Of a DNA stretch of 64,000 bases, positions 11,531 to 19,438 are shown one piece after another; positions within the stretch are counted from its first letter, which is position 1, and each line of letters starts with the position of its first letter. The stretch is taken from positions 6,502 to 70,501 of the forward strand of contig JAIFLU010000034.1 in NCBI GenBank assembly GCA_020048915.1, read 5' to 3'. The DNA comes from Bacteroidota bacterium (GTDB taxonomy: Bacteria; Bacteroidota; Bacteroidia; Bacteroidales; JAAUTT01). Below the pieces are notes generated by a model. It had not been told where the DNA came from. It worked only from the letters and a program-made list of their open reading frames with translations, and searched no databases. The translations under genes and the position numbers were made by a program.

Positions 11531-14500
11531 TTAATTCACCGCATCCTGCCTGGGCAATAAACTATTTTTCTTATCCAGTTCTTTGAGAAATTTCTCAATT
11601 TTATGAGGCAAGGCATGCGCTATTGGTTGAGACTTTTCGTCGCTCCTGCTTGCCCAAATAACGGTATTATTGCCATACGCAAGTTTCCGCTTTCCGCCAC
11701 CGCTCAAACTAAAATACTCGAAATACAGTTTCACGCCATTTTCGTACCGTTTCTCCAGGTACATATCCACTTCAATTTCCTCAAAAGGCATGGCTTCCTG
11801 CAAATGGTTTACATTGGAGCGTAAGCTGATAAACTCTCCTGCCCTTCCGTTTGCCGGGAAAATTTCCGGGTCAATTTTATGAATTAGGTATTCGATCGAT
11901 TTGGCCTGCCAATCGTAATAGTTCGAGTAGTACAGGTTCCCCACCGAATTTCCATCGTAAATTCCTGTTTGGAAAGTCTTCCGTAGAATTTGAAGCTCTG
12001 GTCGGGGTTTCGATTGCGACTCATACACCACTTTCCCTAAATCATCTTTTGTAATAAAGTCGGCTGAATTCCTTCCCTGCGACTCGCTTCCCGATTTCCG
12101 CAAATGTTTCGAGAGGAATGATTCAAAATAGGCTGGCAACGGACTCTGTTTCACAACACCATGACCCTCAATCCGAACCCAGGTGGTGGAGAGGTTGCAA
12201 TCGGCCAGTTTCACCAGCATACCATTATCATCTTTGCGGAACCATTCGAAATTCAAATCGATAAAGGAGTTGGGAAGATCGCTCTTATCGGTAATCCATA
12301 TTTTACCAATAATTTTATTGAGCGATTCGGCCTCGTTATAAATCTTTACCGACGACACATTCGTAACCATCCCAAATTGACCGGTACGAAAATCGTCGAG
12401 CAGTTGTCGGCTAACCGGACTAAGTACCAGTTCCCGCAACTGACCCATCCAGAGTGGAAAATTGGTAAAATAGGTTTTCCCGTAAAATCCTTTACAGTCC
12501 TTGAATGTGGTAAGGAAATGGTTGACAAACTTTCCCGAAACGGCATCAAACATATCATCAGATCCGGTAACTACTGCAATTGGAGGAACAACAACCGTTG
12601 GTGCGGCCTTTTTTAACCGTACGATATACGAAACCATTACTGTGTTTCGAGGTAGAATTTCTACATCGAAGGTCAATACCTGAATTTTTTCGTTTACTAC
12701 TGTTGCTTCAAACACAACACCTTTTTCGCTGATTTCGATTGCCTTAAGTTCCGAAGGAAGGATTCCGGTTGATTTATAAACCGACTCCCTTGCACTCCAG
12801 ATGCGGGTAGCAGAAACATTGGTATCGCCATCAACACAGTTAAGCTCATCGAGCACACTGCTAAACTTATGATCGAGCATTACCAGCCATTCTTCTTTCG
12901 TTCGGTTTTCGACATATTCAATATCGCAGCCCTGTGGGTTTTGACCGGTGGTGATGCATAAAAGGGTACCACTATGCGATAGTGAAACAAAAAAGTCGCT
13001 GTTAGTTATACCAGGCTTGCCATTACTGTCCCAGACCAGTTGATTGAACCCTTCTTTTAATCCAAACGAATTTTGAGGAATAAGCTGCTTTTCGAAAATG
13101 TTTTGTTCAATTGTGTGACGCTTTTCCTTGCTCAGTGTGCCGAATACATCGCTTTGCTTGCAAATAAATTTGTCGGCGCCATCTTCACAAAGCGCATCAA
13201 ACTTTTTGAAGTTTTCTGCAATCTTTCTGCAAATCAATTCGTCCATGGATGCAATTTCATCGGGCAATGGATAGTTTGCTGTAGGTTTTAGCGCTTTTAC
13301 TTCGTAACCGCGAATCTGCTCCAGCACTTCATTTTTATCGTTTACATAGGCAACGTCGCATATACCGCGCTGGTCATCCTGTTCAGTAAGTTTACATTCA
13401 ATAAAGCCACCGTTTTTTTGGTTCTGGATATCAAATATTTCCCATTCCTTAATTCGTATGGGCAGGTAAATTTTCTGTGTCAGAATCAGTTGAACCGATT
13501 GCAACAGCATATCACGGAAGAGCGGACTTCCCATAATAAATGGGGCAAGTTTACCGGTCGAAAAACATATATCGGAAGTGTCGCTTTGCAGCGCCGATGT
13601 TGAGAATATTGCCCTTTCATTATCCAAGGTAAATACCTTTTGGATATTCTGAAATGTAGGGCCCTGAAACAACAGCCAACTGTAAAGATCGGTTCGTGCA
13701 TCTATTGGTAACGCCTTTTCGGGAATGCTCAGCGAAACAGAAGGTTTCTCACCCAACGCATTGAAAACAAATTCTGCCGAGAAATGATCGTCGGTGAAAT
13801 CCGATTGCTCGGTAGATATTCCCGCCCTTACTTTAATAATCCCCTTTTCAGCGGTTAAGTCAGTCAGCACAGTAGCAGTAACCTGAATTTTTAAATCTCC
13901 TTCATCGGGTATTACAATAGGCTTAAGCAAGGTAATGTTTTCGATTTTCAGGGAATTGAATACCGAAACCCCAGAGGCATATGCTGCAGCCTGCGACATT
14001 GCCTCCAGGCCAAATACCGTAGGAAACAGCAACGAGCCATTGTAATTGTGGTCGTTGGCATAACGGTCGTGCAACCGGTTTAATAAACAGCGGGAAACAA
14101 CCTGAACTCCCGGTTCGGAATAGGTAATATTTTCGAGGTATCGGTTCGCAACCGGGGTATGACTCATTTTTCGTTTCCAGGTATCGAGGCCTCCCAATTG
14201 GGCGGCAACAACAATTTGCTGATCGTTGGTAGTATTTTCAATCCAGCGCATAAATTCTTCCACTCCCTGTGTTGGGGTAATAGCTCCAATTCCCATATGT
14301 GCCAACGCTTTGGTACTTCCCATACGCTCACCCATTCCTACCTGGCTCCAAATGCTATATGCCAGTGTAAGGGTTTCGGTACCATGCTTTTTATGAAGAT
14401 TTCGAAGAAGTAAATCCAATGTTTCATTCGAAAAAGCATACCAACTGTTTCCTTGCATACCGGTAACGCCAATAATGGAGGAGAAAGCCACAAAATATTT

Positions 14501-19438: not shown

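Follow-up and report, generated by a model that had tools for sequence, protein, structure and literature searches.

The question raised by this locus is what a large polyketide synthase (PKS) of enediyne type would make in a genome where no enediyne cassette surrounds it. The locus lies in a 64,000-nt stretch of contig JAIFLU010000034.1 (assembly GCA_020048915.1, positions 6,502 to 70,501), which is the window referred to throughout. The host is an uncultured Bacteroidales from a microbial mat, represented by a 6.58-Mb metagenome-assembled genome (MAG) that is 92% complete, and the gene under study, here labelled P0001, encodes a synthase of 2635 amino acids (aa). A preliminary description of the DNA had proposed a one-gene, self-activating and self-releasing polyene synthase. 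The polyene synthase part of this proposal is supported by our analysis, as P0001 belongs to one family with RerA/RerB of Rhodococcus erythropolis PR4 and no cassette was found, but the idea is not new, since RerA/RerB were published in 2024 (Prasongpholchai et al., Chem Commun 2024, PMC11563203). By analogy with this pair we consider it likely that P0001 is a natural single-polypeptide iterative polyene synthase of the RerA/RerB type, which would make and release a conjugated polyene of about C15-C19 and not an enediyne.

P0001 is a single intact open reading frame (ORF) on the minus strand. From the N-terminus its product reads ketosynthase (KS), acyltransferase (AT), three acyl carrier proteins (ACPs), ketoreductase (KR), dehydratase (DH), phosphopantetheinyl transferase (PPTase) and a double hot-dog thioesterase (TE), and a catalytic motif is recognisable in each domain. 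The domains were placed by Pfam, by a hidden Markov model (HMM) made from the ACP repeat, with which the ACPs were counted, and by an AlphaFold2 (AF2) model searched with Foldseek. This confirmed the architecture given in the preliminary description along with its internal PPTase, its motifs and the KS Cys214 named there, and supplied the domain boundaries it had asked for. Pfam detected the KS at residues 8-416, the AT at 591-874, PP-binding domains, the KR at 1522-1698 and PS-DH at 1786-2052, and found no enoylreductase (ER) domain. The Pfam match to ACPS at residues 2170-2236 was weak (22.6 bits, below the cut-off of 25). When residues 2070-2290 of 17 family members were combined into a profile, it matched Sfp (1QR0) at E 8.8e-6, and the remaining matches were all PPTases. 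Over the length of the gene, independent Logan contigs from four microbial-mat runs show 0 substitutions, indels or joints, and one of these contigs spans window 11300-18239. A pseudogene reading was rejected, as the frame is open and the motifs are all intact.

RerA and RerB together form an iterative polyene synthase, in which RerA is KS-AT-ACP-ACP-KR-DH and RerB consists of a PPTase, an "unknown domain Y" and a TE (PMC11563203). We took both sequences from the supplement of that paper and aligned them with P0001 by blastp. Residues 7-2021 of RerA align with P0001 6-2114, the identity being 43% in KS-AT-ACP and 33% in KR-DH, and residues 9-525 of RerB align with P0001 2136-2624 with 30% identity. 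The domain set and its order are the same (KS-AT-ACPn-KR-DH, then PPTase-Y-TE), and the KS cysteine (Cys216 in RerA, Cys214 in P0001), the ACP serines and the PPTase Asp/Glu pair (D48/E50 in RerB, D2172/E2174 in P0001) are kept, as is a WxGxLRE motif in the first hot-dog half of RerB and P0001 alike. Because P0001 is colinear with RerA plus RerB, and because the RerA KS falls within the same family clade (see below), we regard P0001 as a natural one-polypeptide RerAB. The two systems also differ in several respects. P0001 is one polypeptide and not two, it has three ACPs where RerA has two, and Arg415 of RerB is replaced by Ile2515. The P0001 gene pairs with a STAS-like gene in a unit of two, whereas RerAB lies in a 46-kb cluster of 39 genes, the host is an uncultured Bacteroidales and not an actinomycete, and the identity is moderate.

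When RerA and RerB were expressed in E. coli the cells turned yellow, with absorption maxima at 362, 382, 403 and 429 nm, and the products were C15-C19 hepta- to nonaenes, up to nonadeca-nonaene, along with polyenones and ACP-bound chains to C22 (PMC11563203). The KS and PPTase mutants were colourless, inactivation of the TE led to an orange enzyme-bound species, and an artificial RerA-linker-RerB fusion made the yellow more intense (PMC11563203). The expression experiment in E. coli proposed in the preliminary description has in essence been done already, for the homologue RerA/RerB (PMC11563203). It should be noted that this study, in a heterologous system, is the only biochemical work on RerAB-type synthases found in the literature searched, and that literature searches on fused enediyne PKS (PKSE) and TE, on pentadecaheptaene and on cyanobacterial or Microcystis enediyne PKSs brought up no publication about the fused family.

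On the model of RerAB and SgcE/SgcE10 we propose the following mechanism. The internal Sfp-type PPTase would prime the three ACPs and the AT would load malonyl units, upon which KS, KR and DH would act iteratively to give an ACP-bound polyenoyl chain. This chain is expected to be fully conjugated because P0001 lacks an enoylreductase. The double hot-dog thioesterase would then hydrolyse a beta-hydroxy or beta-keto thioester, and decarboxylation and dehydration would yield a linear conjugated polyene hydrocarbon or polyenone of about C15-C19, presumably a yellow pigment.

The AF2 model of the last 351 residues (predicted local distance difference test, pLDDT, 89; predicted template modelling score, pTM, 0.88) shows two hot-dog halves, and its best matches in the PDB were the double hot-dog acyl-ACP/acyl-CoA thioesterases FatA, FatB and ACOT7/12. 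For the last ~120 residues, matches of E 1e-8 to 1e-7 were obtained to CalE7, DynE7 and 4I4J, an "ACP-polyene thioesterase" of SgcE10 type. Both the hot-dog folds and the resemblance of the NSVGNLYYSNY segment to SgcE10/CalE7/DynE7 had been anticipated from the sequence and are borne out by these matches. The key residues of CalE7 are Arg37 and Tyr29. The first hot-dog half of P0001 is without the Asn and Tyr of CalE7-type enzymes and carries the motif WxGxxRE, here with Arg2335 and Glu2336, each of which is found in 111 of 114 family members. In the second half, Asn2497 (Asn in 109 of 114) and Tyr2507 are retained, the Tyr being invariant. As the conserved residues are split over both halves, we suggest that the halves probably form one composite active site, with Arg2335 and Glu2336 from the first and Asn2497 and Tyr2507 from the second. 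It is a new point that the "unknown domain Y" of RerB forms the first of the two halves of a double hot-dog. Arg415 of RerB has been proposed as a substrate-binding residue by the RerAB authors (PMC11563203). P0001 has Ile2515 at this position, with Lys2513 two residues before, and as only 59 of 114 family members have Arg there, this residue may not be family-defining.

The unit was described as consisting of one gene, which is too strong, as a conserved gene for a STAS-like protein of 147 aa lies directly upstream of the synthase. Orthologues with 49-67% identity hold the same position at four loci (L023, L024, L025 and L035) and at 12 GTDB loci, ten of them from Bacteroidales and two from Caenarcaniphilales, some of these loci being the same contigs counted twice. 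The gene is single copy in the host genome and was not found at the Laceyella, Dyella, Electrothrix, Aetokthonos and Gloeothece loci. An AF2 model of the protein (pLDDT 94.5) weakly matched the STAS, SpoIIAA, RsbS and SiaC folds (E 5e-3, template modelling (TM) score ~0.5), and the SpoIIAA-like Pfam family PF11964 was detected on some homologues. The protein could serve in regulation or carry a labile polyene. Further, we speculate, though with considerable doubt, that the PKS and the STAS-like gene are a mobile two-gene unit of Bacteroidales and Caenarcaniphilales (Melainabacteria) in which the small protein binds the unstable polyene. If true, this would be a new pigment-protein pair in microbial mats, acting beyond a mere regulator as chromophore carrier, photoprotectant, antioxidant or light/redox sensor.

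Among the alternatives, the one that survives best keeps the same type of synthase and changes only the fate of the chain, which would not leave as a free polyene hydrocarbon. It would leave as a polyenoic or beta-keto acid, stay attached to protein, or be handed on to a lipid or to the STAS-like partner and so serve as a chromophore in bound form, an antioxidant or a signal. The isoleucine at the RerB Arg415 position points in this direction, as do the orange enzyme-bound species that builds up in TE-inactivated RerAB (PMC11563203) and the dedicated partner kept directly upstream at about a dozen Bacteroidales and two Caenarcaniphilales loci. Against this, the first half retains its near-invariant Arg-Glu and the second its Asn and Tyr, which by sequence would fit an active thioesterase, and half of the family likewise lacks Arg at the Arg415 position. 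The match of the partner to STAS-like folds is weak, and its ligand binding is putative. We therefore find this alternative unlikely and prefer release of a free polyene by P0001, as in RerAB.

To place the KS of P0001, a maximum likelihood (ML) tree was built with five cassette-linked PKSEs, PfaA-like and modular KSs of Bacteroidota, and the FabF and FabB of the host genome, where PfaA was represented by a Bacteroidota protein whose KS-AT alone scored 851 bits. One clade with support 100/100 unites P0001 with 33 relatives, and the RerA KS falls within the same clade (35 rows including P0001, 100/100). The sister of this clade is that of the actinobacterial PKSEs (also 100/100), and the two form, together with a PKSE of the Bacteroidota genome G137, a joint clade (100/100) with a stem of 1.4-1.6 changes per column, well apart from the PfaA-like and modular KSs. 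The KS of P0001 is 52% identical to that of SgcE and 36% to the PfaA-like KS, so the likeness to SgcE-type PKSEs seen in the preliminary description is upheld. In tblastn searches residues 3-1843 of SgcE were colinear with P0001, and the KS-AT of P0001 searched against plasmids returned a cyanobacterial relative first, followed by canonical enediyne synthases, among them SgcE on plasmid SGLP1 with 42% identity over residues 8-928. The DynE8 KS-AT structure was absent among the 60 PDB matches listed for whole P0001, its KS-AT and its N-terminal 190 residues. By these sequence comparisons P0001 is a member of a distinct family, sister to the enediyne PKSEs and not among the cassette-linked ones.

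The same data bear on whether P0001 might be a secondary lipid synthase of the polyunsaturated fatty acid (PUFA) or heterocyst glycolipid type (PfaA- or HglE-like), which would make a membrane fatty-acyl lipid. PfaA is the top NCBIfam model for P0001, with 596 bits against a cut-off of 1010 for TIGR02813. The N-terminal KS-AT, the tandem ACPs typical of PfaA, and the KR are common to both. In a Microcystis paper, moreover, a cryptic cluster is annotated as non-ribosomal peptide synthetase, type I PKS and hglE-KS (NRPS-T1PKS-hglE-KS) and another as having an enediyne synthase gene, with neither cluster linked here to the P0001 family. However, SgcE too has PfaA as its best NCBIfam model, hence this match is not discriminating, and by both identity and clade, in a tree that covered PfaA-like KSs but no named HglE, the KS goes with the PKSEs. 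P0001 further has the internal PPTase of a PKSE and a CalE7-type hot-dog TE, and lacks the ER domain. The other KS and AT homologues in the host genome are FabF/FabB-sized and FabD-sized frames only, and no large KS-bearing partner genes were found elsewhere in it, PfaB, PfaC and PfaD not having been searched by name. Among cyanobacteria, Microcystis and Gloeothece have relatives of P0001, and both genera are to our knowledge without heterocysts. Taken together, a lipid synthase of this kind is very improbable.

The SgcE set searched against the host genome by tblastn included SgcE2/E3 (DUF1702), E4 (CRTAC1/UnbV), E5, E6-E9 and E11. Of these, E2, E3, E4 and E5 gave no match at E <= 0.01, and the notable matches of the whole set came from SgcE and SgcE10 alone, both on P0001. 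Pfam DUF1702 had 0 matches in the host genome, and the best match of UnbV_ASPIC, 14.5 bits, was below its cut-off. E3, E4 and E5 were not beside any of nine family loci whose neighbours were read, whereas the cassette adjoins the PKSE in all canonical loci checked. The earlier statement that no E3/E4/E5-like or tailoring genes lie near P0001, whose neighbours are unlike enediyne chemistry, is thereby extended to the genome and to the related loci. Compared with the enediyne systems (SgcE/SgcE10 of Streptomyces globisporus C-1027, CalE8/CalE7 and DynE8/DynE7), P0001 has the core order KS-AT-ACP-KR-DH-PPTase, a KS from the sister clade and a second hot-dog half homologous to CalE7/DynE7/SgcE10. 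It differs by a fused, double hot-dog TE in place of the discrete single hot-dog TE (E10/E7), by three ACPs in place of one, by the missing E3 (DUF1702), E4 (UnbV/CRTAC1) and E5, and by a family that forms a separate clade over many phyla. According to work cited in the RerAB paper, a PKSE and its TE alone release a linear heptaene (PMC11563203).

A full canonical enediyne-type minimal cassette was observed in a Bacteroidota of another family (L036, G137:C92, 4988-17111). It holds an FG-GAP/UnbV E4-like, an RnfD-like E5-like and a DUF1702 E3-like gene, a PKSE of 2122 aa and a discrete SgcE10-like TE (49% identity), hence true enediyne-type cassettes do occur in Bacteroidota, and the P0001 gene is of another kind than the PKSE found there. 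That P0001 is a true enediyne-core synthase, with E3/E4/E5 partners at another site or in the 8% of the genome missing from the assembly, is extremely improbable, for while its KS lies in the PKSE superclade, the MAG is incomplete and L036 is a real cassette from Bacteroidota, neither the E2/E3/E4/E5 and Pfam searches of the genome nor the nine loci gave any partner and the family stands as a clade of its own.

Some points weigh against our reading of P0001 as a RerAB-type polyene synthase. Its release chemistry could differ from that of RerAB, because Ile2515 stands at the Arg415 position, where just 59 of 114 members have Arg. The chain length is not readable from the P0001 sequence, and C15-C19 is suggested by analogy with RerAB. 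Of the comparison with PKSE, PfaA and HglE sets called for in the preliminary description, the grouping with PKSEs and apart from PfaA-like KSs came out clearly (100/100), in a tree without a named HglE and without the 10-membered PKSEs CalE8 and DynE8. Finally, as the MAG is 92% complete, the absence of partner genes is not absolute.

The fusion seen in P0001 is not confined to this genome. The thioesterase didomain recurs, at the end or within the protein, in at least 113 of the best 120 full-length relatives, which are 2100-3200 aa long. The closest relatives bear Bacteroidales names, and others come from Caenarcaniphilales, cyanobacteria, Oligoflexus, Dyella, Thermoactinomycetaceae (Laceyella, Thermoflavimicrobium, Shimazuella), Desulfobacterota (including Electrothrix and Desulfosarcina) and further groups. 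A search of other genomes for the same fusion, as suggested earlier, found the didomain in 240 of 185,579 species genomes. It forms 219 clusters (50% identity) at E <= 1e-30 and is nearly always the C-terminal end of the protein. On a contig deposited under the cyanobacterial culture Dolichospermum sp. FACHB-1091 (contig5, L038) we observed a didomain 60% identical to the Bacteroidales type, without a STAS-like gene upstream; horizontal transfer or a contaminant contig could be the cause. Among the relatives found, more have the fused form than any other layout, over many mostly uncultured phyla. Cyanobacterial members are often split into a KS-AT protein of ~1020 aa and a second protein, and a search with P0001 residues 1-1130 returned such split KS-AT proteins of the same family. 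By the ACP HMM the number of ACPs ranges from 1 to 5 among family members, and canonical PKSEs have at most one match. Within its own lineage the gene is patchy, being present in 0 of 12 genomes of the same genus and 1 of 48 of the same order.

The neighbours of family members vary. Three Trp-halogenase-like genes of ~600 aa flank members, split or fused, on a plasmid of Gloeothece PCC 7822 (L006 20719-26394) and in Aetokthonos hydrillicola (L029 6992-20901), which hints at halogenated polyene products in cyanobacteria. Elsewhere we found monooxygenases in Dyella and an MMPL transporter in Electrothrix. Many members from Desulfobacterota and Pseudomonadota (P0045, P0052, P0055, P0057, P0078 and P0115) are 3000-3200 aa long and have an extra C-terminal domain like flavin adenine dinucleotide (FAD) amine oxidases and phytoene desaturases, and several members of this size also carry a PilZ domain.

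In the window itself the genes to the left of the synthase are rimM and rpsP, followed by small unrelated genes (bacterial PH domain, glyoxalase-like, TetR, MGMT-like DNA-binding and DUF1349), and to the right are DUF2975 and RibD_C genes, glycoside hydrolases and a SusC/SusD pair, the last in keeping with a host from Bacteroidota. In the interval from rpsP to the synthase (window 7808-10410) we observed short, co-oriented, unrelated accessory genes, including one for a small membrane protein, with a low GC content of 0.32-0.36. Gene order round the synthase, compared around the GH5 gene, was not conserved in the three same-genus genomes compared, hence no empty insertion site was definable. 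A promoter and terminator scan found no more sites than in shuffled sequence, using a sigma-70 consensus that may not suit the host organism. An intergenic stretch of ~100 bp at window ~24294-24392 has dozens of matches of 75-90% identity in the host genome and in the same-genus genome G311, and looks like a dispersed short repeat element. The coordinates of the synthase, its domains and the upstream gene are collected in Table 1.

Table 1. Features of the P0001 locus, in window coordinates, with the residues and motifs of each domain and the evidence for it.
Feature	Residues and motifs	Window position	Strand	Evidence
Whole ORF P0001	2635 aa	11531..19438	-	Uninterrupted frame; colinear with RerA and RerB; identical in independent assemblies
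Ketosynthase	1-470; Cys214, His347 and His388 motifs; EGHGTGT, GHTKAAAG	18029..19438	-	Pfam PF00109/PF02801, motifs, trees
Acyltransferase	591-874; GHSLGE (Ser691), AAFH	16817..17668	-	Pfam PF00698; FabD model TIGR00128 E 4.7e-44
Three tandem ACPs	1028-1107, 1119-1198, 1211-1289; LDS serine in each	15572..16357	-	ACP HMM, 132-141 bits each
Ketoreductase, catalytic subdomain	1522-1698; TGGAKGI, YAFSN	14345..14875	-	Pfam PF08659 E 2e-25
PKS-type dehydratase	1786-2052; HxxxGxxxxP at 1797 (HNYNGSLLFP)	13283..14083	-	Pfam PF21089, PF14765
Sfp-type PPTase	~2100-2261; GCDIE (D2172, E2174), WSARESVYK	12656..13141	-	Family profile against Sfp 1QR0; aligns with RerB PPTase
First hot-dog half (RerB "domain Y")	~2303-2431; WMGQLRE (Arg2335-Glu2336)	12146..12532	-	AF2 model and Foldseek
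Second hot-dog half, CalE7/DynE7/SgcE10-like	~2470-2626; VGNLYY; Asn2497, Asn2501, Tyr2507, Ile2515	11561..12031	-	PDB matches E 8e-9 to 1.5e-7; SgcE10 tblastn E 1.3e-8
Conserved STAS-like gene	147 aa	19680..20123	-	241 bp upstream of the synthase, same strand

Compared with the Rhodococcus system, what is new here is the natural fusion, the three ACPs, the reading of domain Y and the conserved STAS-like gene upstream. With its best-conserved Arg-Glu pair, domain Y becomes a concrete target for mutagenesis. For the engineering of pigments or hydrocarbons, a single compact gene that yields conjugated polyenes could also be of use. A fully fused, self-priming and self-releasing enzyme, such as the Rhodococcus study made by hand, exists in nature, and its partners differ from lineage to lineage, with a STAS-like protein in the present host, halogenase-like proteins in cyanobacteria and a fused FAD oxidase in Desulfobacterota.

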